DNA of 64,000 nucleotides from Candidatus Azotimanducaceae bacterium (lineage in GTDB: Bacteria > Pseudomonadota > Gammaproteobacteria > Pseudomonadales > Azotimanducaceae). Both the position numbers and the translations under genes were made by a program. The notes beneath the pieces are model-generated. The model did no database searches. It had not been told where the DNA came from and saw nothing but the letters and a program-made list of their open reading frames with translations. How positions within the stretch are numbered: the stretch's first letter is position 1; the number at the start of each line of letters is the position of its first letter. Positions 1,659 to 61,700 of this stretch are shown piece by piece. Location of the stretch: NCBI GenBank assembly GCA_965199915.1, contig OZ241348.1:4622414-4686413 (forward strand), written 5' to 3'.

Positions 1659-1670
1659 CGCGGACGCTCC

Positions 1671-3645: not shown

Positions 3646-3750
3646 TAGACGCCCGGCGGCGGTCGCGGAGGCGAACAGCGGGTTGATGGCCTACCCTGCG
3701 GTTGGTCGAGCAGACATCGGCTGGTGGCCCGCGCTCGGCGTCACGTCAGG

Positions 3751-5103: not shown

Positions 5104-5370
5104 ATGGACAAGCTCATGCGCCTCGCCGCGCTCACCTTGGAGGCGGAAGAACAGCGCAAGTTGGAGCGGGATCTCGGCATGATCATCGAGCTGATCGACA
5201 TCATGCGCGCGGTGGACACCACCGGCGTGGCGCCGCTCGCGCATCCTCTGGAAGTCGAGCAGCCGCTGCGCGTGGACGAGGTCACCGAAAAGCCGAATCG
5301 GACGCGCTTTCAACACGCCGCGCCGGCCGTGCGGGACGGGCTCTATCTTGTGCCGCGCGTGGTGGAGTGA
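5104..5370 (+). CDS. gatC: Asp/Glu-tRNA amidotransferase subunit C
   Basis: [18 protein letters not shown] ... APLAHPLE ... LRVDEV pattern of GatC. It overlaps the gatA start by 4 nt. Start is uncertain: ATG 5104 is chosen, and the track ORF opens at 4990. Confidence 0.8.
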
Positions 5371-14753: not shown

Positions 14754-14757
14754 CCAC

Positions 14758-19444: not shown

Positions 19445-19446
19445 TC

Positions 19447-19920: not shown

Positions 19921-19937
19921 CTCACGATGCTGGCAAA

Positions 19938-21242: not shown

Positions 21243-21712
21243 AGCCGCTGCTTCTGTCGCTCAAGCCTGTGTATGCGGATTTGGTATTCAGTGGCTTGAA
21301 GACTGCTGAGTTGCGGCGATGGATGCCGCGGGAAGTAAAGGGCCGGGACGTTTTCATCTATGTCTCCAGCCCGGAGAGAGTGCTTAGAGGGGGGTTCAGA
21401 GTGGCCGATGTCTGGCAGGGTGCGCCAAAAGACGTCTGGCATCGAGTAAAGGACTTGGCGAAGGTTGACGCGAGCACCTACAACGCCTATTACCAAGGGC
21501 GATCGACGGCCTTCGCCCTAAGCATCGCGGATGCGTGGGAATATAAGCATCCGCTTGCCTTGGAAGAATTGCGGCGCAAGTTCGGGAACTTTGTTGTACC
21601 CCAATCGTGGCGATATCTGACGCCTTGTGAGCGTCGGTCTTTCGGCAAGATGAAGCGCGTGCCAATAGACACAGCGGAGAGCGCGGAATGCTCGAAGCGA
21701 GCTGCGGCATGA
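21239..21712 (+). CDS. ASCH domain protein (PUA-like fold, COG4933-type)
   Basis: MKPLLLSLKPVYADLVFSGLKTAELRR ... DVFIYVSSPERVLRGGFRVADVWQGAPKDVW ... FVVPQSWRYL matches the recurrent ASCH pattern. ATGA overlap with the upstream gene. Confidence 0.65.
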   Translation: MKPLLLSLKPVYADLVFSGLKTAELRRWMPREVKGRDVFIYVSSPERVLRGGFRVADVWQGAPKDVWHRVKDLAKVDASTYNAYYQGRSTAFALSIADAWEYKHPLALEELRRKFGNFVVPQSWRYLTPCERRSFGKMKRVPIDTAESAECSKRAAA

Positions 21713-21736
21713 TCGGTTGGCACATGCGAGTCGCCC

Positions 21737-28745: not shown

Positions 28746-30381
28746 CCCTATTGTTGCAGTTTGAGGTCACCCGAGGTTGGAGAAATGCGGTGATTTGCTT
28801 AGTAGGCTTTGAGGGCGGTGTGGTTGCCGGTCAAGGTCACTGGCAGTGAGGTTGTCCGGGTGGCCGACTTTCGGGCATCCGCGGGACCCGGAAGCGATTG
28901 CCCTGTTGTTTTCGGGAACGAAAAAAGCGGTCTCCTTTGGTACGATGTCGCTGTGTGGAACAAACATCGAAGGAGACCGCCGAAGTGAATCGTATCAGGA
29001 AAGAAGTCAGCGGCAAAACCGCAAGCGCGCTGGAAATCCGGTTCGAGCCCCAGAGCCTCACGTCGCACGCCGGCCTGGTGGTGTTCCAGCGCCTGTTCTC
29101 GCGCCTCCAACTGAAGGAGCGGCTGCGCGGCTGCTTTCGGCACGAGTCGGGACGGCGCGCCTACGCGCCGCACGTGGTGACGCTGCTGCTGGTGGTGCAT
29201 CTGCTGCTCGGCTGCCGCGAGCTGCGCGACATGGCGCGCTACCGGAACGACGAGGCGGTGCGGCGCGCGGTCGGTCTGCGGCGGCTGCCGGACGTGTCGA
29301 CGGTGTCGCGGGCGCTGTCGGACGTGGACGCGCGCGGCGCCGACCGGGTGCGGGCGCTGTCGCGGGACATGGCGCTGGAGCGGCTGCGCGCGCTGGGGCC
29401 GCGGCGGGTCACGGTGGACTTCGACGGCACGGTGCTGGCGACGCGGCGGCTGGCGGAAGGTTCGGCGGTGGGCTACAACCCGGGCAGGAAGGGCGAGCGC
29501 AGCTACTGGCCGCTGTTCGCCACCGTGGCGCAGACTGGCCAAACGCTCGACCTGCTGCATCGGCCGGGCAACGTGGCGGACTCCACGGGAGCTGTTGATT
29601 TCATTGGCGAAAGCATGGAGCGGCTGCGCGCCGCGCTGCCGCGCGCCCGCCTGGAGACGCGCATGGACTCGGCGTTCTTCGACGGCGGGCTGCTGGACGA
29701 GCTGGAGCGGCGCGGCGTCGACTACTCGGTGTCCGTGCCGTTCGCCCGCTTCGCCGACCTCAAGGCGGCGGTCGAGGGCCGCCGCCTCTGGCGCCGCGCC
29801 GGCCCCGGCCTGGCGTTCTTCGAGCCGCGCTGGAAGCCCGCCAGCTGGGATGGCCGCCGCCGCGTGGTCGTCGTCCGCCGCCGCGTTCCGGCGCGCCGCA
29901 AGGAGCCTCTCCAACTCGACCTGTTCGAGCCCCGCGAGCACGGCTTCGAGTTCAAGGCCGTCGTCACCAACAAGCGCGTCCGCGCCCGCGCCGTCGCGCT
30001 GTTCCACGAAGGCCGCGGCACCCAGGAGGCGACGTTCGCCGAACTCAAGTCCCAATGCGGACTCGGCTACGCGCCCAGCCGCAAGGAAGCCGCCAACCGG
30101 CTCTTCTCCCTCGCCGCCGTGCTCGCCCACAACCTCGGCCGCGAACTCCAAATGGCCACCCGAGCGCCTCTCCGGAGCACCACCGCCAAACGCTCCCCGC
30201 TCTGGGCCTTCGCCCAATTGCGAACGATGCGCAACGACTTCCTGCTTCGCGCCGGCCGATTCCTCAACCGCGCCGGAAAACCCGTCCTTTCCATCATGAG
30301 CGACGACAAGGCGGAAACCGTCATGTCCGAATACCTTGCCGCCCTCGCCACATAGTTCGGCAAAAACCTGCAACAATAGGG
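28746..30381 (+). mobile_element. IS1380-family insertion sequence (1636 bp)
   Basis: Perfect 14-bp terminal inverted repeats ccctattgttgcag (28746..28759) and ctgcaacaataggg (30368..30381). Flanking 4-bp direct duplication tcca (28742..28745 and 30382..30385). Single transposase ORF inside. Confidence 0.9.
28985..30355 (+). CDS. IS1380-family DDE transposase
   Basis: LTSHAGLVVF ... VDFDGTVLATRRLAEGSAVGYNPGRKGERSY ... RMDSAFFDGGLLDELERRGVDYSV ... FHEGRGTQEATFAELK parallels ISEcp1-type transposase blocks. GTG 28985 is chosen; the track ORF opens at 28898. Confidence 0.88.
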   Translation: MNRIRKEVSGKTASALEIRFEPQSLTSHAGLVVFQRLFSRLQLKERLRGCFRHESGRRAYAPHVVTLLLVVHLLLGCRELRDMARYRNDEAVRRAVGLRRLPDVSTVSRALSDVDARGADRVRALSRDMALERLRALGPRRVTVDFDGTVLATRRLAEGSAVGYNPGRKGERSYWPLFATVAQTGQTLDLLHRPGNVADSTGAVDFIGESMERLRAALPRARLETRMDSAFFDGGLLDELERRGVDYSVSVPFARFADLKAAVEGRRLWRRAGPGLAFFEPRWKPASWDGRRRVVVVRRRVPARRKEPLQLDLFEPREHGFEFKAVVTNKRVRARAVALFHEGRGTQEATFAELKSQCGLGYAPSRKEAANRLFSLAAVLAHNLGRELQMATRAPLRSTTAKRSPLWAFAQLRTMRNDFLLRAGRFLNRAGKPVLSIMSDDKAETVMSEYLAALAT

Positions 30382-32157: not shown

Positions 32158-32793
32158 TTACGCGATGGCGGCAAGCTGACGCTCCTTGCGCTCCCGCTCG
32201 CGCGCCGAAAGCGGCACGCGAAGGTGGCGGCGAAGCACGTCCGCGGCGGGGGCCGCGTCGTACGCGGCGCGGAACAGCTCGGCCATCGTCACGCGCTCGC
32301 CGGCAACCGGCGTGTGCGTCACCGGCAACCCCGCGGACGCCTCGCCGCCGCGCACCACCCGGCAATAGCAACCCGGGCGCTCGGCGGCGCGGAAGTGGCG
32401 CGGCAGGGCGGGTTTGCCAAGGCTCGTCGCCAGCGTGTTGCAGGGAATGCGCGGCGCGGTGGCTTCCAGCACCACCGCGCCGAACGCGAAGCGGTCGCCC
32501 ACCGCCACCGCGCCGCTCTCGCAGCCGTCCAAGGTGAGGTTCTCGCCGAACGCGCCGGCGGCGAAGCCCCAACCGAGCGCGCGCTCGAACCACGCGTAGT
32601 CGTCCGTGGTGTAGACGTACACCGCTTGGTCGGGCCCGCCGTGATGTCGCGCGTCGCAAACGGCGTCGCCGGCGAGACCGGCGGCACCGATGCGCACCGA
32701 CGGCACGGCGCGTTTGAAAATGCCGGTGCGTATGCCGCGCCCACGCACTTCGAGCGGGCGCGCGGCCCCAACGTTTACGCTCACCAGTTCCAT
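32158..32793 (-). CDS. MOSC domain protein (YiiM-like)
   Basis: 211 aa from ATG 32793. GLAGDAVCDARHHGGPDQAVYVY ... GAFGENLTL ... RIPCNTLA is the MOSC beta-barrel pattern with the conserved Cys. Confidence 0.8.
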   Translation of the reverse strand: MELVSVNVGAARPLEVRGRGIRTGIFKRAVPSVRIGAAGLAGDAVCDARHHGGPDQAVYVYTTDDYAWFERALGWGFAAGAFGENLTLDGCESGAVAVGDRFAFGAVVLEATAPRIPCNTLATSLGKPALPRHFRAAERPGCYCRVVRGGEASAGLPVTHTPVAGERVTMAELFRAAYDAAPAADVLRRHLRVPLSARERERKERQLAAIA

Positions 32794-33003
32794 TCCGCGC
32801 TCCCGCCGCGATGATTCCTCATGGTAGCCCTGCCGGTGCGCGGTGAACAAGCTGCGTTGTCGGCACTTGGGCGGATTGCGACACTTGACAACCCGTCGAG
32901 CGGCGACTAATGTTCCATTCACGCGGTTGGGAGGGCTGTGGTTACACGGTCCGCTGGGGCTAGGTGCCCCACCTAGCTGCGGTCGGCTTTGAGTTCCCTC
33001 TGA

Positions 33004-33778
33004 ATGTACCTCCTCTACTTGGATGGGTCGGGCTCCGTGAAGAATCCGACCGAACGCCACTTTGTGCTTGCGGGCGTCGCGGTATTCGAACGCCAAATCT
33101 ACCATCTCATCTCCAAGTTCGATTCGTTCGTCACGTCGTTGAATTTGGGAAATGCGCAACGCGTCGAGCTGCACGCGAGCGTAATGGCCAATGGCAGCAA
33201 GGCACCTTGGAAGGGCATCGTTAGGAAGGAGCGGCTCCGGATTCATCGAGTCTGGCTTGAAGATGTTGGACGACGCTCACAGAAGCGTACGCACGTTCGC
33301 CACCGTGGTGGACAAGCAGGCCCTTGAAGGGGACCCAGTCGAGTATGCATTCGAGGAAATCTGCAATCGATTCAACCTCTTCCTCTCTCGGCTGTGGCGC
33401 AATGAAGACGACAAACAAAGAGGCTTGGTGGTCATGGACGAGTCTCGCTACGAGCAAGCACTGCAAGGCTTGGCCCGGCAGTTTAGGGAGGAAGGCACGA
33501 GGTGGGGAAGCCTGCGCAACATGGCGGAAGTGCCCTTGTTTGCGGATTCAACAGCGTCCCGTCTGATTCAGATCGCGGATCTGCTCGCTTGGGCCGTGTG
33601 GCGACGCTACGAGTACGGCGACACGCGATACTTCGATCTGATCGTGCGGCGCTTCGACCGGGAAGGTGGCGTGCTGCATGGCTTGGTGCATCGCAAGGAT
33701 CCTCGCGACGACTGCCATTGTCCCGGTTGTTTGAGCCGTACCTTACATAGTGAATCCGGTCGCAGGATGGACGGCTAA
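33004..33778 (+). pseudogene. DUF3800 family protein, frameshifted
   Basis: Frame 1: MYLLYLDGSGSVKNPTERHFVLAGVAVF ... ELHASVMANGSKAPWKGI.RKERLR. The +1 frame continues FIESGLKMLDDAHRSVRTFATVVDK ... RLIQIADLLAWAV. The frame switch is near 33236..33245. The region is more A/T-rich. Confidence 0.7.
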
Positions 33779-33908
33779 TTTAGCGCCCCGCCGCGATGAT
33801 TCGTCATCGCAAAAACCCGGTTGCCGGCGAGCGAGCGGAGTGGCAGGCGGTGTGTTGCCAAGGCTCGTCCAGCGTGTGGCCGAACTGGACATCGGACTCC
33901 GCCACCGC

Positions 33909-34334
33909 TCACGTCCGCCGCTGCTTCGCGGACGCCTCGAGAAGCGCCAACAAGGACGTTGGCGAGTAGACCGAGACCGATGTTTTGGCGAAATCCCGTT
34001 CATTGCGCGTGGCGATCGCGCCAACCTGCATCTGACGTGCCGATGCCGCGACCACGGCATCCTCAAAGTCGCTCACCTTGCTTTCGACAGCCTCCCGCAG
34101 CACCGCGCCAGTCACCGGCGCCACGTCGAGAATCGAGAGGATGGCGTACACCTGCCGACGGGCTTCGTCCAGCCCAACCGCCTTGCGCGCCAGATAGAAG
34201 ATGGTGGTGACCACGCTGGCGCAGATGTAGCCCTGAATGTCGCCCCGTTCCGCCCGCGAAAGCAGTTGGCCGGCCGGCTCGTCGAACGGTTGACGCCGCA
34301 ACAGAACATCGAGAACGACATTGGCATCGAACAT
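33909..34334 (-). CDS. PIN-domain toxin (VapC-like)
   Basis: MFDANVVLDVLLRRQPF ... DFEDAVVAASARQMQVGAIATRNERDF. The ATG shares 1 nt with the antitoxin stop. Confidence 0.8.
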   Translation of the reverse strand: MFDANVVLDVLLRRQPFDEPAGQLLSRAERGDIQGYICASVVTTIFYLARKAVGLDEARRQVYAILSILDVAPVTGAVLREAVESKVSDFEDAVVAASARQMQVGAIATRNERDFAKTSVSVYSPTSLLALLEASAKQRRT

Positions 34335-34579
34335 CACCCGCAAAGGTACTTCCTTTCCAAGTGGGTGCGATAATCCGCCTCGTCAACGCCAGCGCCCGCG
34401 AGGGCACCCATCAACCGCGACACCTTGGGCGCCAAAGTCGATGGCCGAGATTCCGCGGAAGCAATGGCGGCAAAGTAGTCCGAAACCATCTGCGAGACGG
34501 AGCACCCGGCTTGCCTCGCGTGCTGCTTCGCCGCCTTGACAAGCTGGTCGTCCAGCCTGAGCGTCAGCTTGGTTTGCAT
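34334..34579 (-). CDS. putative antitoxin (RHH/DUF6364-like)
   Basis: 81 aa. MQTKLTLRLDDQLVKAAKQHARQAGCSVSQMVSDYF is the typical ribbon-helix-helix antitoxin N-terminus, immediately upstream of the PIN gene. Confidence 0.7.
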   Translation of the reverse strand: MQTKLTLRLDDQLVKAAKQHARQAGCSVSQMVSDYFAAIASAESRPSTLAPKVSRLMGALAGAGVDEADYRTHLERKYLCG

Positions 34580-41939: not shown

Positions 41940-42842
41940 TCAACCAGCCGCGGCCAGCACCGGAATGGGCTGGTTCTGCTTCGCGTAGGGGAACACGTCC
42001 GCGAAGCCGGCGAGCGCGCGGAACAGTTCGGGATCGTCGCAGTCCTCCGCGAGTTCTTGCGGGAAGGTGCCTTGAATGTCCTCTTGCGACGTCACCATCA
42101 CATGCCGGTAGTAGTTGGCGATGGAGAGCCGCATGCCGGGAATCACGCGCGGAAACGCGCCGTGCCAAGTGGCGCCGTGGAAGACGATGACGGAGCCTTT
42201 CGGACATTCCACCGGCACCGCCTCCTCTGCCGCGCGGGGCTGGTCGGGCCGTCGTCCACGCCGATGCGAACCCGGCACATAGGCGAAGGCGCCGCCCTCC
42301 TTGGTGTAGTCCGTAAGGCACCAGTTGGTGTTGGCGGTGAGCGCCGTCCGCCCCCAGGGCAGCGGCAAGGCGGTCTGATCCGCGTGCAGGCCGAGGGTCG
42401 GCCCGTAGCCGAACGCGCCCTGCCACTTCACGAACGAGTTGTGGCTTGAGAAGCGGGCGAACGCTTGGCCGATCATGTGCCGCATCAACGCCACCGCGGC
42501 CGGATTCACGGCCAGATCGCGGAACAGACGGTGCACGCGGCCCAGCTGCTGAATCAGGAACTGGCTTGGGCGGCGGTTTTCCTTGTCCACCGCCGCGAGC
42601 CCGCTCGCATTCGGCGCGAAGTCCAACGCGGTGTGCGGCCCGCGCGCCAAGCTGAACGGGCAGCCGACCATCTCCTCGCTCTTGGCGAGCAGCAGTTCCA
42701 CCATCCGGTCGATGCGGTCCATGCCCACGCCGTGAACTTTCGGCGGCAGCACGGTGAGGCCATCGACCTCCAGATCCAACACGTGCTGTTCCAGCCGGAG
42801 TTCCTTCACCTCGTCGCTGAGCTTGGTTGGCATGGGCCGCAC
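41940..42842 (-). CDS. phytanoyl-CoA dioxygenase (PhyH) family Fe(II)/2-oxoglutarate oxygenase
   Basis: LGLHADQTALP ... VFHGATWHGAFPR pattern. 300 aa. Confidence 0.8.
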   Translation of the reverse strand: MRPMPTKLSDEVKELRLEQHVLDLEVDGLTVLPPKVHGVGMDRIDRMVELLLAKSEEMVGCPFSLARGPHTALDFAPNASGLAAVDKENRRPSQFLIQQLGRVHRLFRDLAVNPAAVALMRHMIGQAFARFSSHNSFVKWQGAFGYGPTLGLHADQTALPLPWGRTALTANTNWCLTDYTKEGGAFAYVPGSHRRGRRPDQPRAAEEAVPVECPKGSVIVFHGATWHGAFPRVIPGMRLSIANYYRHVMVTSQEDIQGTFPQELAEDCDDPELFRALAGFADVFPYAKQNQPIPVLAAAG

Positions 42843-42856
42843 CCGCCGGCGGTCGC

Positions 42857-44497
42857 TTAAGCGGCGTGGCGCAGCACGCGCCCGGCGCGCGCGCCGGTGT
42901 GCTCGCCGTCTTCCAGCGTCACCGCGCCGTTGACGATGGTGGCCTTGTAGCCCTTGGACTTCTGGATGTAGCGCGGAGCGCCGCCGGGGAAGTCGTGTAC
43001 CAGCTCGGGCTGGCGTTCGGCGACGTTGGCGGGATCCAACACGTTCACGTCCGCCTTCATGCCGGTAGCCAAGGTGCCGCGGTCCGCCAATCCCAACACC
43101 CGCGCCGGGCCGGAGGTCAGGCGTCGGACGCCTTCCTCCAAGCTATAGAGCCCGGCGGCGCGGATCCAGTGCGAAAGCACGAAACTCGGCCAGCCGGCGT
43201 CCATGATTTGGGAGACGTGCGCGCCGGCGTCGCCGAGGCTGGGGAAGATGTGCTCGCTCTTGAACAGATCGCCGAGCTCTTTGAGGCTTTGGTTGAACAT
43301 GCGCAGGTTGAAGAGCGCCTTGCCGTCCGTCTCGTCCGAGAGGCGCAGGAAGGTCTCCACCCAGTGTTCGCCGGCGGCGGCGGCTTGCGCTTCCAAGTTC
43401 TGCTCCGGCGGGGCGGTGTAGTTCGGGGATTCGCCATCGCCGAGGTAGAACACGTTGGTCATCGGGAAACGGCGCTTCATGTCGCGGCCCTCGGCCGCCA
43501 ACTTGGCGCGAACGTCCGCGTCGCGGATGGCCGCCAGCCGTTCGGCAAGGCCCATCTTGCGCAGCTTTTCCCACGTCTCGCCCTGCACCGGCAGCGCGGA
43601 TTGCAGACCGAACATGAAGCCGGAGCCGCGCACTTGGGTGATGGCCGTGAGGTCGCCGTGCTTGCACAGCTTGGCCAGGTTCTCCGCCTGCGCCTTGCCG
43701 GAACCGGGCTGCGGCCCGGTGCCGTAGCTGAAGAGAATGCGGCCGCCGGTGGTCTCGGCCATGGCCTTCAACACGTCGAAATTCGCGCCGACGGCTTGCA
43801 TCAAGCCGTTGCGCGGCCCAACCGCCTTGGCGATCTCCACGAGCTCGACCGGGTCGGCGAAGGTGCCGGGAATGGAGCGCCCGTCCGGCAGCTTGTGCGG
43901 CGGGTAGCGATTGGTGGAAAAGCCAACGGCGCCGGCGTCGATGGATTTCGCCACCACGTTCGCCATTTGCGCGCGTTCCTCCGGCGTCGCCTGCTCTTCC
44001 ACGGCGCGCTCGCCCATGACGTAGAAGCGCACGGCGCAGTGGCCCACCATGCCGGCCACGTTCAACGCCGGATCGAGGCCCTCGATGGCGTCCAAATAGC
44101 CGCCGTAATCCTCCCAATTCCACGGCAGGCCGGTGAGGATGGCGTTCTTGGGGATGTCCTCCACCGTTTCCATCATCGCCGCCAGGAGTTCCACGTCCCG
44201 CGGCTTGCAGGGCGCGAACGTGACGCCGCAGTTGCCGAGCAGGGCGGTGGTCACGCCGTGCCAACTCACCGGCGTCATTTCCGGATCCCAGCCGATCTGG
44301 GCGTCCAAGTGGGTGTGCAGGTCCACGAAGCCGGGCGTTACCGCCATGCCCTTGGCGTCGATTTCGCGCTTGCCCTTGCCGGCCACTTGGCCGATGGCGG
44401 TGATGCGGTCGCCGTCGATGGCGAGGTCGCCCTGCCGCGGCGCGGCGCCGGTTCCGTCCACGAGGTCGCCGCCCCGAATCACGATGTCGTGTGTCAT
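42857..44497 (-). CDS. N-acyl-D-amino-acid deacylase (D-aminoacylase) family amidohydrolase
   Basis: MTHDIVIRGGDLVDGTGAAPRQGDLAIDGDRITAIG ... PGFVDLHTHLD. 546 aa. Confidence 0.88.
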   Translation of the reverse strand: MTHDIVIRGGDLVDGTGAAPRQGDLAIDGDRITAIGQVAGKGKREIDAKGMAVTPGFVDLHTHLDAQIGWDPEMTPVSWHGVTTALLGNCGVTFAPCKPRDVELLAAMMETVEDIPKNAILTGLPWNWEDYGGYLDAIEGLDPALNVAGMVGHCAVRFYVMGERAVEEQATPEERAQMANVVAKSIDAGAVGFSTNRYPPHKLPDGRSIPGTFADPVELVEIAKAVGPRNGLMQAVGANFDVLKAMAETTGGRILFSYGTGPQPGSGKAQAENLAKLCKHGDLTAITQVRGSGFMFGLQSALPVQGETWEKLRKMGLAERLAAIRDADVRAKLAAEGRDMKRRFPMTNVFYLGDGESPNYTAPPEQNLEAQAAAAGEHWVETFLRLSDETDGKALFNLRMFNQSLKELGDLFKSEHIFPSLGDAGAHVSQIMDAGWPSFVLSHWIRAAGLYSLEEGVRRLTSGPARVLGLADRGTLATGMKADVNVLDPANVAERQPELVHDFPGGAPRYIQKSKGYKATIVNGAVTLEDGEHTGARAGRVLRHAA

Positions 44498-44582
44498 TGA
44501 AATCTCTCCATTTGGAATTGCTCAGCCTCCCTCAGAGGAGGCGTCGCGTGTAGTGGGTTTGTAGTCCAACGCCGGGTGCCGG

Positions 44583-45506
44583 TCAATCGAAGGCGGCGAC
44601 GATCTCCTCCTCCAAGCGCTCGAAGGCCTCGGTGTTGCCGGTGGGTACGCCGCCGAACATGATCTCCGCAACCCCCTCGCGCTCGAACGCGCCGATGCGG
44701 TCGATGATCTCGTTGGCGGGGCCGGCCATGGAACCGGGGCCCAGCGCCCGTTGGAAGCGCTCGATGCGCTGCTTGTCGTCCGTGATCTGCACGGGCATCA
44801 GCAATGTGCGCTTGATCTCGGACGGGTCGCGTCCGACGTTGGCGCAGTGCTTCTCCAACACGCCGATCTTGTGCCGGTACACCTCGAGGGACATGCCCTG
44901 CCCGGCCCAGCCGTCCAAGTTGAAGATGTCGCCGAACAGGGCCAGCGTGCGCAACGTGCGCCGTTCGCCGGTGCCGCCCACCATGATGGGGATGTGCGGC
45001 TTTTGGTGGCAACCCGGGGAAAGCGGCGCTTGCTCCAGCCGGTAGTACTTGCCGTTGTAATCCACCGGCCCCGCGGACGTGAAGAGCAAACGCAGCAGTT
45101 CGCAGGCTTCCTGGAAGCGGTCCTGCCGCTCCTTCATGGAAGGGAAGGTCCAGCCGTACGCTTCGTGTTCGCGTTTGAACCACGCCGCCCCCAGCGCCAG
45201 CTCGAAACGGCCTTCGGAAGCGTGATCCAGCGTGGTCGCCATCTTGGCGAGCAACGCCGGGTTGCGGTAGGTGTTGCCGAGCACCAAGTGGCCAAGGCGC
45301 AGCGTTTTTGTCATGCCGGCGGCCACGGCGATGAGGGTGTAGCCCTCGAACGCGGAGAGATGCTCATCTTCGCGCCGTCCCGGCGGCGGCAGGAAGTGGT
45401 CCGCGAACCAGACGCTGTTCCAACGCCGCCCGTCCATCGCCAAGATGGACGCCTTGATGGCATCCCAAGTGGTGCGGTAGCAGTTCACTTGCACACCGAA
45501 CTTCAT
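44583..45506 (-). CDS. LLM-class (luciferase-like) flavin/F420-dependent oxidoreductase
   Basis: MKFGVQV ... WFADHF ... LGLGAAW-like (LALGAAWFKREHEAYG) pattern. 307 aa. Confidence 0.85.
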   Translation of the reverse strand: MKFGVQVNCYRTTWDAIKASILAMDGRRWNSVWFADHFLPPPGRREDEHLSAFEGYTLIAVAAGMTKTLRLGHLVLGNTYRNPALLAKMATTLDHASEGRFELALGAAWFKREHEAYGWTFPSMKERQDRFQEACELLRLLFTSAGPVDYNGKYYRLEQAPLSPGCHQKPHIPIMVGGTGERRTLRTLALFGDIFNLDGWAGQGMSLEVYRHKIGVLEKHCANVGRDPSEIKRTLLMPVQITDDKQRIERFQRALGPGSMAGPANEIIDRIGAFEREGVAEIMFGGVPTGNTEAFERLEEEIVAAFD

Positions 45507-45582: not shown

Positions 45583-46452
45583 TCAATCAACCCGCACGGC
45601 GCCGGACGCCCGCCGGCGCTGCCGCTGTGCCCGCCGCTCCTCTCCCATGCGCCGCAACTCGGGCAGATCCGCCGCGCCGAACGTCATGTAGGTCTCGCGC
45701 CACTGCCCGCCTTCGCCCCAGCGCACCGGCACCGGCAGCGTCGCGCGCGGCGCGCGCGCTTCTGCAAACAAGCGCAACGCCGCCGCCACGGTGTCGCGCT
45801 GCATGGCGCGGTCGTACGGTTTGCCGCAGGGGTTGCCGAGCGGAAAGTCCGTGAACGCGAAGCGCGGCACGCCGCAATGCTCCACCACATCGCGCGCCGA
45901 GCCGAGGATCACGGTGGGCAAGCCGTTCGCTTCGAGGTGCCGGGCGACCAGACCCACGGTCTGGTGGCACACCGGTCACAACGGCACGAGCAGCGCGATG
46001 TCCGCGCCGTCCTGCCGACAGCGCTTGAGCAGCTCCGGCGCGTCGAACGCGCGCGTGCGCCTCTGGCTGTATTCGGTGGGCGCGCAGTGGAAGCGTTGCG
46101 CCAAGCCGCCCAAGCGGCCTTCGGCCACTAGGTCTTCGAGCGCCTCAATGGGCAGGTAGGTACCGCGGTCGTCCATGTGCGTGGCTTGCCGGTGCCAAGC
46201 GAGATCGCCGGCGAACAGCCGCTCCGGCGGATGCGCCGTGGACGCGGACGCGACGAAGCGCGGTTCGGACTCTTGGCGGTCGTACAGCGCGCCGGTGGTT
46301 ACGAGCGCCAAGGTGGCGCGCGCCAGCGGCTTGGACAGCGGCGCGAAGGGCACGTCCTCAAAACGCGCCCACGCATACGGCTTCGCAAAGCCCTGCGCCT
46401 CGTAGTAGCGCCGGGTGCGCTCCATGTACCGGACGGGTTCGCTCACGCGCAA
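45583..46452 (-). CDS. GrdB/PrdB-like reductase family protein with in-frame TGA (candidate selenocysteine at 45976..45978)
   Basis: Track ORFs 45976..46452 and 45583..45972 are in the same frame, separated only by TGA-CCG. The junction reads DIALLVPL-U-PVCHQTVGLVARHLEANGLPTV (U-x-x-C). A SECIS-like hairpin begins 6 nt downstream. Confidence 0.6.
45937..45970 (-). ncRNA. SECIS-like stem-loop within the coding sequence
   Basis: The RNA is GUGCC-A-CCAGACC-GUG-GGUCUGG-UCGCCC-GGCAC. It has a 7-bp apical stem plus a 5-bp basal stem. The apical loop lies about 20 nt after the UGA. Confidence 0.5.
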
Positions 46453-46548
46453 GGATCATACACCCTCGCCGCTGGCGGTCCCGTCGCGTCTGGAGCGGTA
46501 TTATCGCCTTGGGATTCACGGTCGAAGACACGGGGCGGAGGCGCAAGC

Positions 46549-46773
46549 ATGGACTATCGAGGGCTAATCACTATCGAGCCGGGCAAGCGGGGTGGCAAGC
46601 CTTGCATCAGGGGCATGAGGATCACGGTCTACGATGTCCTCGAATACTTGGCGGCTGGCATGAGCTACGACGAGGTGCTTGGCGAGTTTCCGTATCTGCG
46701 CCGAGAGGACATTCTCGCCTGCTTGAGCTTTGTGGCGGACCGAGAGCGCAAGGCCTTGGTCGTGGATGGATGA
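46549..46773 (+). CDS. DUF433 protein (antitoxin-like partner of DUF5615)
   Basis: MDYRGLITIEPGKRGGKPCIRGMRITVYDVLEYLAAGMSYDEVLGEFPYLRREDILACLSF is the canonical DUF433 pattern. ATGA overlap with the next gene. Confidence 0.85.
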   Translation: MDYRGLITIEPGKRGGKPCIRGMRITVYDVLEYLAAGMSYDEVLGEFPYLRREDILACLSFVADRERKALVVDG

Positions 46774-47699: not shown

Positions 47700-49595
47700 G
47701 TGAACACCATGATGCTGTTGGAGATGGCCGCCGGCGGGTTCGGCGACCGCGTCGCCTTCACCGATTCGCGCGCAGGCGCGTCCATCACCTATCAGCAGCT
47801 GTACGACGCCGCCGGCGCGGCGGCGCGCGACATCCGCGCCTCCGGGGCGACCCGCGCCGCCATGCTCGATGTGAGCAACCTCGCCGTGCCGGTGGCGTTG
47901 TTCGCGGCCGGTTGGGCCGGGGTGCCGTATGTGCCCATCAACTACCGCCTCACGGCCGAAGAGATCGACGCGCTGCTCGCCCGCGTGCAACCCGCCTACT
48001 TGGTGACGGACGCGGAGCGCGTTCCCCGCCTCCAAGGCCGGGACGGCGTGGCCCTGCGCGAGCGCGACGGCTTCTTGGCAATGGCGCGCGCCGGCGGCGG
48101 CAGCGACGAGCAACGCTCCATGGACCCGGACGACGTCGGCGTGCTGCTCTTCACCAGCGGCACCACCGGCGCGCCGAAAGCCGCCATGCTGCGCCACCGG
48201 CACTTGGTGTCCTACATCCTCAGTTCGGTGGAGTTCCACTCCGCCGCCGAGGAGGAAGCCGCGCTGGTGTGCGTGCCGCCTTACCACATTGCCGGCATCG
48301 CCGCGGCGCTGAGTTCCGTGTACGCCGGCCGCCGCGTGGTGCAGTTGCCCAACTTCAGCGCCGATGCGTGGATCGACGCGGCGCGCGCCGAGCGCATCAC
48401 CACCGCCTTCGTGGTGCCCACCATGCTCGCCCGCATCGTCGCCGCTCTGGAAGGCGAGAAGACGGCGCGCATGCCGCACCTGCAATCGCTCTCCTACGGC
48501 GGCGGCAAGATGCCGTTGCCGGTGGTCGAGAAGGCCATGGCGCTGTTCCCGGACACGGACTTCACGAACGCCTACGGCCTCACCGAGACCAGCTCCACCG
48601 TCACCGTGCTCGGTCCGGACGAGCATCGCGCCGCCATGTCCGCGCGCGACGAAGCTGGTCGGCGCCGCCTGGTGTCCGTGGGCGTCGCCATGCCCGGCGT
48701 GGAAATCGAAATCCGCGATGACCAAGGCAGATCCCTGCCGCCGGGCGAGCGCGGCGAGATCCACGTGCGCGGTGAACAGGTTTCCGGCGAATACGAGGAT
48801 CGCGGCAGCCTGGTGGACGCCGATGGCTGGTTCCCCACCCGCGACGCCGGATACATGGACGAGGACGGCTACCTGTTCCTGGACGGACGCGCCGACGACG
48901 TGATCGTGCGCGGCGGCGAGAACCTCTCGCCCGGGGAGATAGAAGACATGCTGATCGCGCACGCGGCGGTGGCCGACGCCGCCGTGGTCGGCGTGCCCAG
49001 CGTGGAGTGGGGCGAAGCCGTGGCCGCGGTGGTGGTGGCCAAGAGCGGCACGCCGGTGGGCGAGCCCCTAGCGGGCGAACTGCAAGCCTGGGTGAAGGAA
49101 CACATGCGCTCCTCGCGCGTGCCGGAGCGTGTGGACTTCTGGGGCGAGCTGCCTTACAACGAAACCGGCAAACTGCTGCGCCGGGTGGTGAAGGCGCGCC
49201 TGGTCGAGCCGCGCCGGAACGTCCGCGCCACGGTGCCGCTGGTGCGCGTCGCGGACATCGAACGCTCCCTCGCCTTCTATTGCGATCAGCTGGGGTTCAC
49301 CCTGCGGGGCCGCTGGGACCCGGACGGCAAGCTCGCTTGGTGCCTGCTGGCGATGGAAGGCGCCCAGCTAATGCTGCAACAGGCGGGACCGCAGAACGCG
49401 GACGGCCTCGCCCAAAGCGGCGGCGACATCGAGCTGTTCTTCGTTTGCGAGGACGTGGACGCGCTGCGCGAACGCTTCCTGGGCCGCGGCGTGGACGCCC
49501 CGCCGCCAACGGTGGCGTTCTACGGCATGCGCCAACTCGCCGTCGCGGACCCCGACGGGCGCTCGCTCTGCTTCGAGCACCCGGTTGCCTCTTAA
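47700..49595 (+). CDS. AMP-dependent acyl-CoA synthetase/ligase fused to a C-terminal glyoxalase/VOC domain
   Basis: LLFTSGTTGAPKAAML, YGLTETS, GWFPTRDAGYMDEDGYLFLDGRADDVI are adenylation motifs. The last 120 aa or so (VPLVRVADIERSLAFYCDQLGF ... GMRQLAVADPDGRSLCF) look like a VOC fold. Confidence 0.85.
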   Translation: MNTMMLLEMAAGGFGDRVAFTDSRAGASITYQQLYDAAGAAARDIRASGATRAAMLDVSNLAVPVALFAAGWAGVPYVPINYRLTAEEIDALLARVQPAYLVTDAERVPRLQGRDGVALRERDGFLAMARAGGGSDEQRSMDPDDVGVLLFTSGTTGAPKAAMLRHRHLVSYILSSVEFHSAAEEEAALVCVPPYHIAGIAAALSSVYAGRRVVQLPNFSADAWIDAARAERITTAFVVPTMLARIVAALEGEKTARMPHLQSLSYGGGKMPLPVVEKAMALFPDTDFTNAYGLTETSSTVTVLGPDEHRAAMSARDEAGRRRLVSVGVAMPGVEIEIRDDQGRSLPPGERGEIHVRGEQVSGEYEDRGSLVDADGWFPTRDAGYMDEDGYLFLDGRADDVIVRGGENLSPGEIEDMLIAHAAVADAAVVGVPSVEWGEAVAAVVVAKSGTPVGEPLAGELQAWVKEHMRSSRVPERVDFWGELPYNETGKLLRRVVKARLVEPRRNVRATVPLVRVADIERSLAFYCDQLGFTLRGRWDPDGKLAWCLLAMEGAQLMLQQAGPQNADGLAQSGGDIELFFVCEDVDALRERFLGRGVDAPPPTVAFYGMRQLAVADPDGRSLCFEHPVAS

Positions 49596-56602: not shown

Positions 56603-57390
56603 CGCTCATCAAGGTGCGCAACGTGTGGAAACGGTATCGCGCCGCCAACGGCGGGCGCGGCGGGTGGAAAGTCGTGCTGGAGAACATCCGCTTGGAGGTC
56701 GAGGAAAGCGAGTTCGTCACCATCGTCGGCGCCTCGGGCTGCGGGAAGACTACCTTCCTGCGTTTGCTGCTCGGCGACCTCGCGCCTTGCGAAGGAGTGA
56801 TCGAATTGGCCGGCGAACCCCTCGCGCCCGAGCCGAACGCCCACCGCGGCGTCGTCTTTCAGCGCTATTCGGTGTTCCCCCACCTCACCGCGCTTGGCAA
56901 CGTGCTGCTCGGCTTGGAGTTCGGCGCGTCGCGCTTCCTCGGGCGCACGTTCGGCGCCAAGCGGGCGCGCAACATCGAGCAAGCCGAGAAGATGTTGGAT
57001 CGCGTGGGGCTGCTGGCATCGGCGAGCGCCTACGCGGCGCAGCTGTCCGGCGGCATGCAGCAGCGTTTGGCGCTCGCGCAAACGCTCGTCACCGCGCCGC
57101 GCGTCCTGCTGCTCGACGAGCCGTTCGGAGCGCTGGACCCGGGCATTCGCGCCGACATGCACGACCTCGTGCGTCAGCTCCACGCCGAATTGGCGCTCAC
57201 CGTGTTCATGGTGACGCACGACATCGCAGAGGGGTTCAAGCTGGGCACGCGCCTGCTGGTGTTCGACAAACCGCGCGTCGATCCGCACGAACCGGACCTC
57301 TACGGCGCCACGATCACCTTCGATCTCCCCGTGGCCAACGCGACCGCGGCGACCAAAGAACCGATTGCGCGGATTGAGCAGGCCGCATGA
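56599..57390 (+). CDS. ABC transporter ATP-binding protein
   Basis: GTG 56599 overlaps the permease stop. Walker A GASGCGKTT, signature LSGGMQQR, Walker B LLLDEPF. Confidence 0.92.
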   Translation: MTLIKVRNVWKRYRAANGGRGGWKVVLENIRLEVEESEFVTIVGASGCGKTTFLRLLLGDLAPCEGVIELAGEPLAPEPNAHRGVVFQRYSVFPHLTALGNVLLGLEFGASRFLGRTFGAKRARNIEQAEKMLDRVGLLASASAYAAQLSGGMQQRLALAQTLVTAPRVLLLDEPFGALDPGIRADMHDLVRQLHAELALTVFMVTHDIAEGFKLGTRLLVFDKPRVDPHEPDLYGATITFDLPVANATAATKEPIARIEQAA

Positions 57391-58109
57391 GCGGTTCGGA
57401 CGTTCTTTATCAAGACGTGCTGCCCGGCGGCAGCCACTGGTCCTTCGTGGTCAACGCCGGCGTGCTCTTGCGGCTGATCGACGTCGAGGGCGGCGGCAAC
57501 GCCGCGATGCTGGCCTACAACCCCGACAATCCGTTGGAACGCCTCAATCTGCCGGACACCCTGAAGTGCCAACACACCTTTCGACTCACCGCCGGCCACT
57601 GCCTGTATTCGGACATGGGACGCATCTTCTGCTCCATCGTCGCCGACGATGTGGGCTGGCACGACGCGGCGAGCGGCACCTGCGACGCCGCGCTGGTGCG
57701 GCGCAAGTGGGGCGAACGCCGCTTTCAAGAGGCGCGCAACGACCACCACCGCAATGGCCGCGACAGCTTTCTGGTGGAGCTCGGCAAATACGGCCTCGGC
57801 CGCCGCGACTTCGCCGCCAACGTCAACTGGTTCTCCCGCGTGGACGCGGACGCGAGCGGCAACCTCGCCTACCGCGAGAACCATTCCCCGGCCGGCGGCG
57901 CGGTTGCCCTGCGTTTCGAGATGCGCGCGCTGGTGGTGCTGCACACCTGCCCGCATCCGCTCAACCCCGCCGCCGAATATCCACGCCGACCCATCGGCTA
58001 CGAGCTGGGCCGCGCCGAATCGGTGGCCGAAAACGACGCCTGCCGACTGTCGCGACCGGAAAACGGGCGCGGTTTCGCCAACAACCGCTTGTACGCCTTG
58101 GGGACGTAA
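57387..58109 (+). CDS. urea-carboxylase-associated DUF1989 protein 1 (carboxyguanidine deiminase subunit-like)
   Basis: 240 aa. Paralogous pair with the next gene, immediately upstream of the carboxylase. 4-nt overlap with the ATPase gene. Confidence 0.75.
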   Translation: MSGSDVLYQDVLPGGSHWSFVVNAGVLLRLIDVEGGGNAAMLAYNPDNPLERLNLPDTLKCQHTFRLTAGHCLYSDMGRIFCSIVADDVGWHDAASGTCDAALVRRKWGERRFQEARNDHHRNGRDSFLVELGKYGLGRRDFAANVNWFSRVDADASGNLAYRENHSPAGGAVALRFEMRALVVLHTCPHPLNPAAEYPRRPIGYELGRAESVAENDACRLSRPENGRGFANNRLYALGT

Positions 58110-58115
58110 ACCGCG

Positions 58116-58769
58116 ATGTTGCAGGAAAGCAATCGAAACGCCGCGGACGCGCGCCGCCGCGAAGTGGTGCCGGCCGGCGAATACTGGATCGGCGAAATCG
58201 CCAAGGGCGACGTGCTGCGCATCACGGATTTGCACGGCAACCAGGCGGTGGACACGTTGTTCTTCAACGCCAGAAATCCGCGCGAACGCTACAGCGCCAT
58301 GGACACCATCCGCGCCCAGGCCAACCTGTACCTCACCACCGGCACCACGCTGCTTTCGGACGCGGGCAACGCGCTGCTCGCCATCGTCGCGGACACGTGC
58401 GGACGCCACGACACCCTGGGCGGCGCCTGCGCCGGCGAGAGCAACACGGTGCGCTACGCGCTCGGCAAGAAGACGATGCACTCCTGCCGCGACAGCTGGC
58501 TGTTGGCCTTGGGCACGCACGAGCAGTGGGGTCTCGACAAGCGCGACCTCGCCCACAACATCAATTTCTTCATGAACGTGCCGGTGACGCCCGAAGGCGG
58601 CTTGACCTTCGAGGACGGCATCAGCGCGCCCGGCAAGTACGTGGAACTCGAAGCGAAGATGGACGTGTTGGCGCTGATCTCCAACTGTCCGCAGCTCAAC
58701 AATCCCTGCAATGGCTACAACCCGACGCCCGTCGAACTCGCGGTGTGGGCGGGCGCCGGCCCAACGTAG
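58116..58769 (+). CDS. urea-carboxylase-associated DUF1989 protein 2 (carboxyguanidine deiminase subunit-like)
   Basis: 217 aa. [29 protein letters not shown] ... pattern typical of DUF1989. Confidence 0.75.
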
Positions 58770-58781
58770 CCCACGCCGACG

Positions 58782-61700
58782 ATGTTCAAGAAGGTCCTCG
58801 TTGCCAACCGCGGCGAAGTGGCCGCGCGCATCTGCCGGACGCTCGACGCCCTCGGCGTCGCCAGCGTTGCCGTGTACGCGGAAGCGGACCGCGACTCGCC
58901 ACATGTGGAAGCGGCCCGGGAAGCGGTGTCGCTGGGCGAGGGTGGCGTGGCGCAAACCTATCTGGCGCAAGCCAAACTCCTTGCCGCCGCGCGCGGGACC
59001 GCTGCCGACGCGGTTCACCCCGGCTACGGTTTTCTGAGCGAAAACCCAACCTTCGCCCAAGCGCTGGACGACGCCGCCGTGGCCTTCATCGGCCCCCGCC
59101 CGGCGCACATCCGCTCCTTCGGGCTGAAGCACGAAGCGCGCGAGTTGGCGGCGGCGGCGGGCTTGGCGCTGCTGCCCGGCAGCGCCGTGTTGACCGGCGT
59201 GGACGAGGCGCGCGCGTGGGCCGAGCGCATCGGCTATCCGGTGATGCTGAAGAGTTCCGCCGGCGGCGGGGGCATCGGCATGGCGCGCTGCGACGACGCG
59301 GTGGCGCTTGATCGCAACTTCGCCGCCGTGCGGCGGCTGGCCGCGGCGCAGTTCGGCGACCCGCGGCTGTTCGTCGAGCGTTGCGTTCCCGCGCCTCGGC
59401 ATGTGGAAGTGCAGGCGTTCGGCGACGGCCACGGCGGCGTGCTCGTGCTTGGCGACCGCGATTGCTCGCTGCAACGCCGCCACCAGAAGGTCGTGGAAGA
59501 GTGCCCGGCGCCGAACCTCGCGGACGCGGTTCGCGCGCGCATGCACTCCGCCGCCAAGGCGCTGCTGGAGAGCGTGGCGTATCGCAGCGCCGGCACGGTG
59601 GAGTTCCTCTACGACGCGGACCGGCAAACCGCCTACTTCCTCGAAGTGAACACGCGCCTGCAGGTGGAACACGGGGTCACCGAGCTGGTTTTCGGCATCG
59701 ACCTGGTGCGTTGGATGATCGAGTTGGCCGCCGGCGACTTGCCGCCGCTAGACGCGCTGGCGGGCGACGCCAAACCTACCGGCTGCGCCATGCAGGCGCG
59801 GCTCTGCGCCGAAGACCCGCACCGGGGCTTTCGCCCTTCGCCGGGCACCGCGTCGGTGGTTTCGTTCCCGCGCCGTCGCAGCGTTCGCGTGGACACGTCG
59901 TTGCGTTCCGGCGCCGAGATTCCACCGCTCTACGACTCCCTGGTCGCCAAGGTGATGGCGCACGCCGCGGACCGCGACGCGGCGCGACGGGACTTGCGCG
60001 CGGCGTTGGGCGAGACCGTCGTGTTCGGCGTGCAAACCAACCGCGACTATCTGCGCCAAGCGTTGGCCTCGGCGCCGTTCGCGCAGGCGCGGCACGACAC
60101 CGGCACGCTGGCGACTCTCGACTATCGGCCACGCGCCTTGGAAGTGGTGGCCGGCGGCTTCCACGCCACCGTGCAGTCCTGGCCCGGTCGGCGCGGCTAT
60201 TGGTCGGTGGGCGTGCCGCCTTCGGGGCCCATGGACGACCTTTCCTTTCGCCTTGGCAACCGTCTGCTCGGCAACGCCGAGGGCGCGTCCGGCTTGGAGT
60301 TCGCCCTGCACGGGCCGACGTTGCGCTTCCACACCGCCGCGACCGTGTGCGTGACCGGTTTCTGTGCGCTCGAAAGCGGCGCTTGCTGGGAACCGTTCGC
60401 GGTGGCGGCCGGCGATGTGCTCGCCATTGGCAAGGTGACGCAGGGCGCGCGCGGCTATGTGCTCGTGGCCGGCGGCCTCGACGTGCCACCGACGATGGGT
60501 TCGGCGGCCACGTTCACCTTGGGCGGCTTTGGCGGCATGAACGGTCGCGCGTTGGCGGCGGGGGATGTCTTGCCGATCGCAAAGGCAGCGGCGCCCGGCG
60601 CCAAAGCGCTCCCTCAAACACCGGACTGGTCGCGCCGGCTGGAGCTGCGCGTGACGATGGGGCCGCACTGCACGGACGAGTTCCTCACCCACGACGGCAT
60701 CCGCGCCTTCCTCGAAGCCGAATGGACGGTGCATTACCATTCCGACCGCACCGGCGTGCGCTTGATCGGTCCGCGCCCGGCGTGGTCGCGCAGCGACGGC
60801 GGCGCCGCCGGCTTGCACCCCTCCAACATCCACGACAACGCCTACGCCTTCGGGGCCATCGATTTCACCGGCGACATGCCCGTGGTGCTTGGCCCCGACG
60901 GACCCAGTTTGGGCGGCTTCGTCTGCCCGGCGGTGGTGATCGAAGCGGATCGGTGGAAACTCGGCCAACTCGCGGCCGGCGACAAGCTGCGCCTGCGCGC
61001 CGTCACCGAGGCGGAGGCACGTCGGCTGCGCCGCGAACAGAACGGCGCCTTGGCCGCCGCGCGCGGCTTGGCGGCCAAGCCATCCGCCAACGCGAAACAC
61101 CACATCGAACGCTCCGTCGTGCTCGAACACGAAGACGTGCGCGTGCGCCGCGCCGGGGACGAAGCGCTGTTGTTCGAGTTCGGTCCGAACACGCTGGACA
61201 TCGAATTGCGCCTGCGCGCGCATGCCTTCGATGCCGCCATCAAGGACGAACGGCCTTCCGGCGTGGTGGAGACGACGCCCGGCATCCGCTCGCTGCTCGT
61301 CCGCTACGACTCGGAGCGCTTCTCCGGCACCGGTTTCGCCCACCGCCTGCTGCCGCTTCTCGAGTCCTCGCGCGGGCGCCAAGTCGGCGCGGTGGAGTCG
61401 CGCATTGTTCGGCTGCCGTTGTCGTGGGACGACCCGGCCTGTCGGGAAGCCGTCGAGCGCTACACCGCAAGCGTGCGCGCCGACGCGCCGTGGTGCCCCG
61501 ACAACATCGAGTTCATTCGCCGCATCAACGGTCTCGCGGACCGGCAAGCCGTCAAGGACATCGTCTTCAACGCCGACTACCTGGTGCTGGGCCTCGGCGA
61601 CGTCTACCTCGGCGCCCCGGTGGCCACGCCGCTCGACCCGCGCCAGCGCCTGGTGACCACCAAGTACAACCCCGCGCGCACTTGGACCGCCGAAAACTCG

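Follow-up and report, generated by a model that had tools for sequence, protein, structure and literature searches.

Selenoproteins designated proline reductase PrdB, in which selenocysteine (Sec, U) is part of a UxxC motif, were listed as the third most abundant predicted selenoprotein family of the Sargasso Sea, with 42 Sec genes (Zhang, Fomenko & Gladyshev 2005, PMC1088965), and 235 Sec and 110 cysteine (Cys) forms of the family were later reported in the metagenomes of Global Ocean Sampling (GOS) (Zhang & Gladyshev 2008, PMC2398784), placing it among the most abundant selenoproteins of the surface ocean. UxxC is the motif type of PrdB (PMC13188914, PMC1088965). Here, we present an analysis of positions 45,583–46,452 of a 64,000-nt stretch of DNA (hereafter, the window; 66% G+C) from Candidatus Azotimanducaceae bacterium (GCA_965199915.1, contig OZ241348.1), where a first-pass annotation, made from the sequence alone, had proposed a selenoprotein gene with an in-frame UGA followed by a hairpin resembling a selenocysteine insertion sequence (SECIS). 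We conclude that the locus is very likely a SECIS-dependent selenoprotein gene, encoding a PrdB/GrdB-related oxidoreductase with Sec at residue 150, rather than a pseudogene. Three lines of evidence support this conclusion: homologues have Cys at the UGA column, the reading frame is conserved past the UGA, and the UGA is followed by a covarying hairpin that is specific to the Sec forms.

The gene is a new sequence in a family that has been predicted in silico since 2005, including its Sec/Cys dichotomy. Comparing the window protein with the Sargasso/GOS PrdB family, we found no essential difference; what is new is a sequence from a high-G+C, Pseudomonadales-like genome. The two have the same junction ...LLVPL-U-PVCHQTVGLVARHLE... 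and the same UxxC motif, the assignment to pfam07355 is weak for both, and both Sec and Cys forms exist. Moreover, the Sargasso nucleotide records have the same RNA core after the TGA, CAGACCGTGAGTCTG. AACY01093821, which reads ...DAALLVPLuPVCHQTVGLVARHLESNGIPTV... (PMC1088965 supplement), shares 51% identity with the window protein across 176 residues (E = 1e-68). A divergent Sargasso subgroup with the motif U-P-L-D-H-Q-T (e.g., AACY01465730) has no Cys at +3 and keeps the hairpin, CAAACCGUGGGUUUG; its stem, CAAAC/GUUUG, is the A18:U28 compensatory variant (RNA numbering throughout, with the UGA as U1-G2-A3).

Clostridial PrdB (TIGR04483; Kabisch et al. 1999 as cited in PMC1088965, PMC13188914) is the best curated model for the window protein, is of similar size and has the UxxC motif. 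The match to this NCBIfam model is nearly colinear (residues 27-224 on profile positions 20-222 of 238; E = 1.9e-20), from which the equivalence of the UGA column to the Sec of clostridial PrdB was inferred using the hidden Markov model alignment; however, it scores 73.4 bits versus an equivalog cut-off of 300. The carriers also differ from clostridia and include Bradyrhizobium (Cys form), Reyranella and Pseudohongiella. These genera belong to mostly aerobic lineages and are not known as Stickland fermenters. GrdB, GrdF and GrdH (PF07355, TIGR01918) share a UxxC-type Sec center with the window protein, which is distantly homologous to the C-terminal half of GrdB; by contrast, the N-terminal ~200 residues of GrdB are absent here (280-289 aa versus about 430 aa). 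In the Pfam model GRDB (PF07355), residues 13-218 align to profile positions 200-418 of 431 at 18.1 bits (E = 1.8e-3), where the gathering score is 22, and the GrdB-type model TIGR01918 gives 32.8 bits, below its cut-off of 65.45. None of the NCBIfam models reaches its cut-off for this PrdB-like UxxC family. By these profile scores, the protein is a distant PrdB/GrdB relative that lies outside the curated PrdB and GrdB families. The first-pass annotation had assigned it to the GrdB/PrdB family PF07355; the distant relatedness holds, while the family assignment does not, given that PF07355 and TIGR04483 both score below cut-off and no PrdA/GrdA-type partner is encoded nearby.

The hairpin likewise has a described counterpart. 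As in the prototype bacterial SECIS of Escherichia coli fdhF, it is located within the ORF (open reading frame) directly 3' of the UGA and has a small loop containing G and U; it differs from the fdhF element in sequence, and no bulged U is evident. The minimal fdhF element, in work attributed to Liu et al. in 1998, is reportedly also a 17-nt stem-loop 11 nt after the UGA. Many bacterial SECIS (bSECIS) elements resemble neither one another nor those of E. coli (PMC13188914); compared with typical bSECIS elements, the core described here is unusually invariant, over about ten phyla.

Results

Gene and reading frame

The gene is on the minus strand, which the first-pass annotation had not stated. 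Its elements are as follows.

46452..45583, minus strand: predicted full selenoprotein gene, 289 codons plus stop; start TTG at 46452, terminator TGA at 45583-45585
45976..45978, minus strand: predicted Sec codon UGA, residue U150 numbered from ATG 46425
45967..45978, minus strand: U-P-V-C redox motif (UxxC), followed by the invariant H-Q-T, from the alignment and the AlphaFold model
45948..45964, minus strand: putative SECIS core, the 17-nt hairpin C15-G31, starting 11 nt after the UGA; stem CCAGAC(C)/(G)GUCUGG
45937..45970, minus strand: extended hairpin, with the lower tier GUGCC (9-13)/GGCAC (38-42) around the core; present here, unconserved as RNA

The ORF list contains two entries at this locus, 45976..46452 (minus, 158 aa, TTG start) and 45583..45972 (minus, 129 aa, GTG start), which are in one frame, and single-frame translation of 46452..45583 gives the TGA at 45976-45978 as the only internal stop. 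The junction reads ...ADIALLVPL-U-PVCHQTVGLVARHLEANGLPTVILG, with the TGA at U, and the motif around the UGA is L-V-P-L-U-P-V-C-H-Q-T. The coordinates, the two ORFs parted only by this TGA and the junction are, therefore, exactly as the first-pass annotation had given them. The length of 289 aa that it had proposed is correct for the start at TTG 46452, which the N-termini of homologues favor, and becomes 280 aa from the alternative ATG 46425. The composition of both halves is strongly coding-like and matches, with a G+C content at third codon positions (GC3) of 0.87 and 0.88 and at second positions (GC2) of 0.51 and 0.55.

UGA is the commonest stop codon in the window, terminating 16 of 30 Pfam-supported genes and also the gene itself. 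Because UGA is an ordinary stop here, recoding must be local and not the result of a changed genetic code. The only other TGA-bridged pairs of coding-like sequences in the window were at 40808, an ordinary gene junction, and at 39423, an antisense artefact.

The assembly ERZ26167708 (L001) contains an identical gene, TGA included, with 0 mismatches and 9 indels relative to the window over 13.3 kb. ERZ23495684 (L243), from a strain in another sample, is 97.7% identical at the nucleotide level and has the same TGA and the identical 60 nt after it. Since the TGA recurs in these two other public assemblies, it is neither a sequencing error nor an assembly artefact. In both, public gene calls split the gene into 149 aa and 129 aa, as had been anticipated for standard gene callers.

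Homologues of the protein

Using the full-length protein with U replaced by C as the query against 5.8 billion proteins, we identified full-length homologues of ~281-299 aa that align end to end with 53-58% identity and include Bradyrhizobium proteins labelled glycine reductase or D-proline reductase PrdB. In 119 of the 120 best full-length homologues, the UGA column is occupied by Cys, within an invariant C-P-V-C-H-Q-T motif. In an alignment of 17 sequences, L149, P151, V152, C153, H154, Q155 and T156 are invariant. When only the N-terminal 149 residues served as the query, a different set was obtained: the 120 best clusters (98-64% identity) are all 149-192 aa in length, and all 120 stop at the U column with ...LVPL, ...LVPI or a close variant. 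These closest clusters are evidently shortened gene calls that end at the predicted Sec column. Thus, the database entries do end at the UGA, yet the frame continues past the TGA in at least 120 genomes, as described below.

An AlphaFold2 model of moderate quality (predicted local distance difference test score 69, predicted template modeling score 0.76) places the motif with U150 where strand 143-147 passes into helix 153-166. A strand-to-helix junction is the usual setting of a redox CxxC. Sequence and profile searches of the PDB gave no match even at E = 10, and a Foldseek search of the PDB with the model gave nothing meaningful (best E = 0.04, template modeling score < 0.4); hence, no functional inference can be based on the fold.

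The UGA form across genomes

We scanned one genome per GTDB species for the pattern TGA-CCN-GTN-TGY-CAY-CAR-AC-(16 N)-MGN-CAY-YTN-GAR-GC. At least 120 species-representative genomes, distributed over about ten phyla, have a TGA at the U column with an intact downstream frame; among the matches listed, the carriers are Gamma-, Alpha-, Beta- and Deltaproteobacteria, Acidimicrobiia and other Actinomycetota, Dehalococcoidia, Rokubacteria, Methylomirabilia, Binatia, Myxococcota and others. Before the TGA, the frame stays open for 160 codons or more (160 being the tested limit) at each locus where the contig is long enough; after the TGA, it continues for ~100-140 codons in nearly all of the listed loci, which corresponds to the conserved C-terminal half. 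The listed orthologues with TGA are 32-72% identical to the window protein.

The region after the UGA is also conserved as protein. For 14 pairs of Sec-form orthologues, the ratio of nonsynonymous to synonymous substitution rates (dN/dS; Nei-Gojobori) is 0.055-0.30 upstream and 0.02-0.38 downstream of the UGA. Because the downstream values are as low as those upstream, the C-terminal part is maintained as a protein. Moreover, codons 2-5 after the UGA vary in the Sec forms only at third positions, which argues that they are translated in frame.

Four genomes each contain two Sec paralogues: OZ245851.1 (L032 and L104), CAZTXP01 (L068 and L120), CAWJJJ01 (L053 and L105) and JAFAZJ01 (L059 and L084). 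A divergent subgroup of the genomic Sec forms, for which L007, L008, L018, L034 and L035 are among the examples, reads ...GRPPRA... in place of ...HCGVPRF... downstream of the motif.

The hairpin after the UGA

In the window, the upper tier CCAGACC (15-21)/GGUCUGG (25-31) encloses a GUG loop (22-24), whereas the loop is CGUGA in most of the family. The minimum free energy (MFE) is -10.0 kcal/mol for positions 15-31 and -18.7 kcal/mol for positions 9-42. There is a single instance of the core pattern in the window, and Rfam at gathering thresholds gave nothing at the hairpin site. The published bSECIS model has a loop of 3-9 nt with G in the first two loop positions and then G or U, an upper stem of 4-16 bp, a UGA-to-loop distance of 16-37 nt and an MFE of at most -7.5 kcal/mol (PMC13188914). 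With a loop of 3-5 nt, a stem of 6-7 bp, G followed by U, a spacing of 17-18 nt and an MFE of -10.0 kcal/mol, the hairpin agrees with the model at each point.

As a control, 120 Cys-form genes were collected from metagenomes with the same pattern, except for TGY in place of TGA, and with the same amino acid motif. Because the Cys forms encode the same motif, nucleotide differences between the two groups report constraint at the RNA level. The comparison comprised 119 distinct Sec forms and 114 distinct Cys forms, and the conserved element that emerged is CAGAC-CGUGN-GUCUG together with the pair C15:G31. The 5-bp stem 16-20/26-30 is intact in 116 of the 119 Sec forms versus 2 of the 114 Cys forms, and the mean MFE of the hairpin 15-31 is -6.8 kcal/mol in Sec forms and -2.05 kcal/mol in Cys forms (Mann-Whitney p = 1e-35). 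Within the Sec forms, GU at 22-23, GU at 26-27 and G30 are present in all 119, C21 in 116 and G24 in 112; consequently, positions 26-27 restrict the encoded residue to Ser-AGU, Cys-UGU or Gly-GGU, with no other Ser codon in use. The entropy at positions 21-27 and 30 is about 0 in Sec forms and 1.0-1.8 bits in Cys forms, in which position 27, for instance, is C in 76, G in 26, U in 10 and A in 2 sequences. The synonymous sites 21, 24, 27 and 30 are, thus, frozen in the Sec forms only.

The two helices differ in how often their alignment cells are paired.

Upper helix, 15-20/26-31: 98.2% of cells paired in Sec forms, 70.9% in Cys forms
Lower helix, 9-13/38-42: 76.8% of cells paired in Sec forms, 75.8% in Cys forms

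Changes on both sides of a pair were found only in Sec forms, at 15:31 (C-G in 82, U-A in 20) and at 18:28 (G-C in 102, A-U in 7). In the Cys forms, A18 is mostly opposite C28, and U15 is opposite G31. The observed covariation score was reached by 0 of 500 shuffles for the Sec forms versus 160 of 500 for the Cys forms, for which it equals the shuffled mean. The hairpin core is, therefore, conserved and covarying in the Sec orthologues but not in the Cys forms.

The lower tier behaves differently. Three of its pairs are set by the codons for Cys, His and Arg, and the wobble pairs 9:42 and 12:39 are paired in ~40% of either set. With no Sec-specific conservation or covariation, we rejected it as a conserved RNA element; it is a side effect of the coding sequence and is complete in this window by chance. 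Of the two-tier hairpin GUGCC/GGCAC plus CCAGACC/GGUCUGG described in the first-pass annotation, then, both tiers are present, and the upper stem but not the lower tier is conserved.

Sec machinery at an orthologous locus

Among 120 orthologous loci analyzed with ARAGORN, a tRNA-SeC was detected in L068 only (CAZTXP010000203.1, 1-3300), and selB homologues were likewise confined to this locus. It encodes the C-terminal part of selB (9-1328, plus strand; SelB beta-barrel, wing 2 and wing 3 domains), a thioredoxin-reductase-like protein (1339-2241, plus strand) and a tRNA-SeC with the anticodon TCA (2267-2362, plus strand), which is convergent with the Sec-form orthologue and 8 nt from its stop (3' end 2370). 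From its gene content, L068 is a predicted compact cluster of Sec machinery and a selenoprotein gene. This arrangement lends indirect support to the reading of the UGA as Sec. The label Enterobacteriaceae in the L068 record appears doubtful.

Gene context

Candidate expression signals and the genes downstream of the selenoprotein gene are listed below.

46463..46467, minus strand: Shine-Dalgarno-like GAGGG, 10 nt upstream of the TTG; a candidate read from the sequence
46570..46598, minus strand: weak sigma-70-like promoter match TTGCCA-17-GATAGT, ~120 nt upstream of the start (consensus scan, 9/12)
44583-45506, minus strand: luciferase-like monooxygenase (Pfam)
42857-44497, minus strand: amidohydrolase (Pfam)
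41940-42842, minus strand: PhyH-type dioxygenase (Pfam)

The co-oriented genes at 41940..45506 may form an operon with the selenoprotein gene. Other neighbors in the window encode a DUF433 protein and an AMP-ligase, the latter a fusion of AMP-ligase and glyoxalase (47700-49595). The nearest listed Sec-form genomes are L114 and L030, from uncultured Pseudomonadales and Ca. Azotimanducaceae (72% identity); in both, the luciferase-like and amidohydrolase genes are syntenic with those of the window, and L114 also has the upstream AMP-dependent ligase. In L243, all three downstream genes are syntenic.

Considering ~240 Sec and Cys loci together, the commonest neighbor is a family III (CaiB-type) CoA-transferase (PF02515), which is present at 53 loci and, in 33, lies immediately downstream of or overlaps the gene on the same strand. 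Further recurrent neighbors are genes for acyl-CoA dehydrogenase, AMP-ligase, short-chain dehydrogenase/reductase (SDR) and TctC. Neither a PrdA/GrdE-type nor a GrdA-type partner was found in the window or among these recurrent neighbors; the same is true of the PrdA pyruvoyl proprotein and of a PrdC partner, which in D-proline reductase are encoded with PrdB (and PrdD/E) in a prd operon, and of a grdA/grdC/grdD/grdE context.

Other features of the window

A BREX-like defence island (10905-23737, plus strand) lies between gatAB and cysD/cysNC. It encodes a 1282-aa DUF6079 protein (full-length match, 1722 bits), a protein with SLFN/AlbA_2 and HATPase_c_4 domains, a 932-aa DNA methylase, a 484-aa ORF without assignment and a PglZ-domain protein. 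An insertion sequence, recognized by its DDE transposase gene (DDE_Tnp_1_4; 28898-30355, plus strand), separates the sulfate-activation genes from a methyltransferase/MOSC region.

The sole Rfam match in the window is a DUF3800-VI RNA motif (32924-32979, plus strand; 55 bits versus a gathering threshold of 35). It is antisense to the domain-free N-terminal part of the ORF 32158-33246 (minus), the MOSC domain of which comprises residues 198-310; the start of this ORF is probably over-extended. A DUF3800 gene was not found downstream of the motif, where 33750-34373 (plus) has no Pfam match and 33909-34343 (minus) is a PIN-domain gene.

A urea carboxylase/allophanate hydrolase cluster (57387-63657, plus strand) contains two DUF1989 genes, a gene for a 1185-aa biotin carboxylase with carboxyltransferase domains and an amidase gene, and is preceded by genes for an NMT1-like binding protein and an ABC ATPase.

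L001 (ERZ26167708:ctg186318, 1-6288) diverges from the window beyond 49216, inside the AMP-ligase gene, and past this point has genes for a beta-lactamase and an aldehyde dehydrogenase where the window has a TonB receptor; several of its genes are split by indels. The divergence is due to misassembly or else to a genuine rearrangement between strains that are nearly identical.

Discussion

We propose that the gene at 46452..45583 (minus) encodes a single oxidoreductase of ~31 kDa in which the active-site residue 150 would be Sec. According to this model, the 17-nt hairpin 11 nt after the UGA would act as a bacterial SECIS and recruit SelB-GTP-Sec-tRNA(Sec) to the ribosome, so that the UGA would be decoded as Sec and not as a stop. 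Being inside the coding sequence, the RNA element would constrain the codons for H-Q-T-V-(S/G/C)-L at synonymous positions, with Ser always encoded by AGU. By homology and motif, the U-x-x-C pair is expected to cycle between the selenol/thiol and selenenylsulfide states, as in GrdB/PrdB-type reductases. While the UGA, the Sec/Cys pair at this column, the conserved read-through frame and the Sec-specific covarying hairpin are observed, we infer SelB dependence, selenium incorporation and the redox chemistry.

Several observations weigh against this model. Using ARAGORN and Pfam scans of ~50 ORFs, we found no selA, selB, selC or selD in the window, and ARAGORN detected no tRNA gene in it at all; among the 120 orthologous loci analyzed, Sec machinery is present within the 8 kb of a single one (L068). 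In the literature examined, we found no experimental data on selenium incorporation for the PrdB-like UxxC family. At the RNA level, the 71-nt fold (-33.4 kcal/mol) has a z score of -2.1, with 7 of 200 shuffles as stable, which is mildly above chance, and the MFE of the whole 45-60 nt after the codon is the same in Sec and Cys forms (p = 0.3 and 0.9). Because the fold of the single sequence is only mildly unusual, the real support for the hairpin comes from the comparative data. Finally, the window and L243 differ at seven codons only, too few to show selection.

One alternative explanation is that a Cys codon, TGC or TGT, was mutated or misread as TGA, leaving a pseudogene or an erroneous sequence. 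A single base change (TGY to TGA) would suffice, and databases and gene callers do hold the two halves as separate hypothetical proteins. However, a TGA that recurs at this column in 120 or more species from about ten phyla, with the downstream frame intact and under purifying selection, is not what such an event would leave behind, and neither are a GC3 of ~0.88 in both halves, the presence of the TGA in three independent assemblies from two samples and a conserved hairpin after the TGA that is specific to Sec forms. We consider this explanation exceedingly improbable. Almost no weight is likewise given to a split gene, in which translation would terminate at the UGA and re-initiate at a GUG at codon +2 or +7 to yield two polypeptides that assemble. 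The window has a GUG 3 nt after the UGA, which gene callers use as the start of the 129-aa ORF, and a GUG at codon +7 is nearly invariant in the Sec forms; yet codon +2 is GTG in only 44 of the 119 Sec forms and GTC, GTT or GTA in the other 75, and the near-invariant GUG at +7 is explained as the apical loop of the hairpin. Furthermore, the P-V-C-H-Q-T codons before +7 are fixed as amino acids and synonymously variable, hence translated, and a split would lose the residue that matches the invariant Cys in the CxxC center of the homologues.

The UGA could also be read through without selenium, by a near-cognate tRNA (Cys or Trp) or by low-level suppression, for example in a lineage from which the Sec machinery was lost while the gene was kept. 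Such a mechanism would fit with the window, in which this machinery was not found, and with the evidence from homologues that Cys is functionally acceptable at this position. However, the hairpin in the window keeps every SECIS feature of the family, and the 60 nt after the UGA do not differ between strains, whereas, in the absence of SelB, one would expect a lineage to have changed TGA to TGY, given that Cys forms are common, or to have let the hairpin decay, as it has in the Cys forms. Related Pseudomonadales genomes also keep the same arrangement. We therefore consider read-through without selenium very unlikely and favor SECIS-dependent insertion of Sec.

With regard to function, the gene context suggests a link of the family to acyl-CoA/carboxylate metabolism rather than to Stickland reduction. 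This context argues against a canonical role as D-proline or glycine reductase, which is unlikely, and the label PrdB is probably misleading as to function. We tentatively raise the possibility, which we hold to be less probable than not, that the family comprises stand-alone Sec/Cys-x-x-Cys reductases from soil and marine bacteria, largely aerobic ones, with a role in the metabolism of acyl-CoA or betaine-like carboxylates.

Relative to the earlier in silico work, what is new here is the comparison of the hairpin between Sec and Cys forms, the delimitation of a 17-nt conserved core and the rejection of the lower stem, together with how widely the TGA form occurs in genomes, how far mis-annotation extends in current databases and a gene context that speaks against the PrdB label. 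For annotation, the locus should be represented as one selenoprotein instead of two hypothetical proteins. Hundreds of database entries are split in the same way, in at least 120 clusters, some of which are hypothetical proteins from NCBI metagenome-assembled genomes (e.g., P0195, P0227, P0230 and P0238). The 15-nt core CARACCGUGNGUYUG after UGA-CCN-GUN-UGY provides a simple and specific diagnostic that could be used to fix these gene calls. For the biology of the family, the unusually invariant SECIS over about ten phyla would suggest that the gene has repeatedly been transferred horizontally along with its RNA element, and a stand-alone reductase, if this proposal is true, would represent a new selenium-dependent enzymatic activity.

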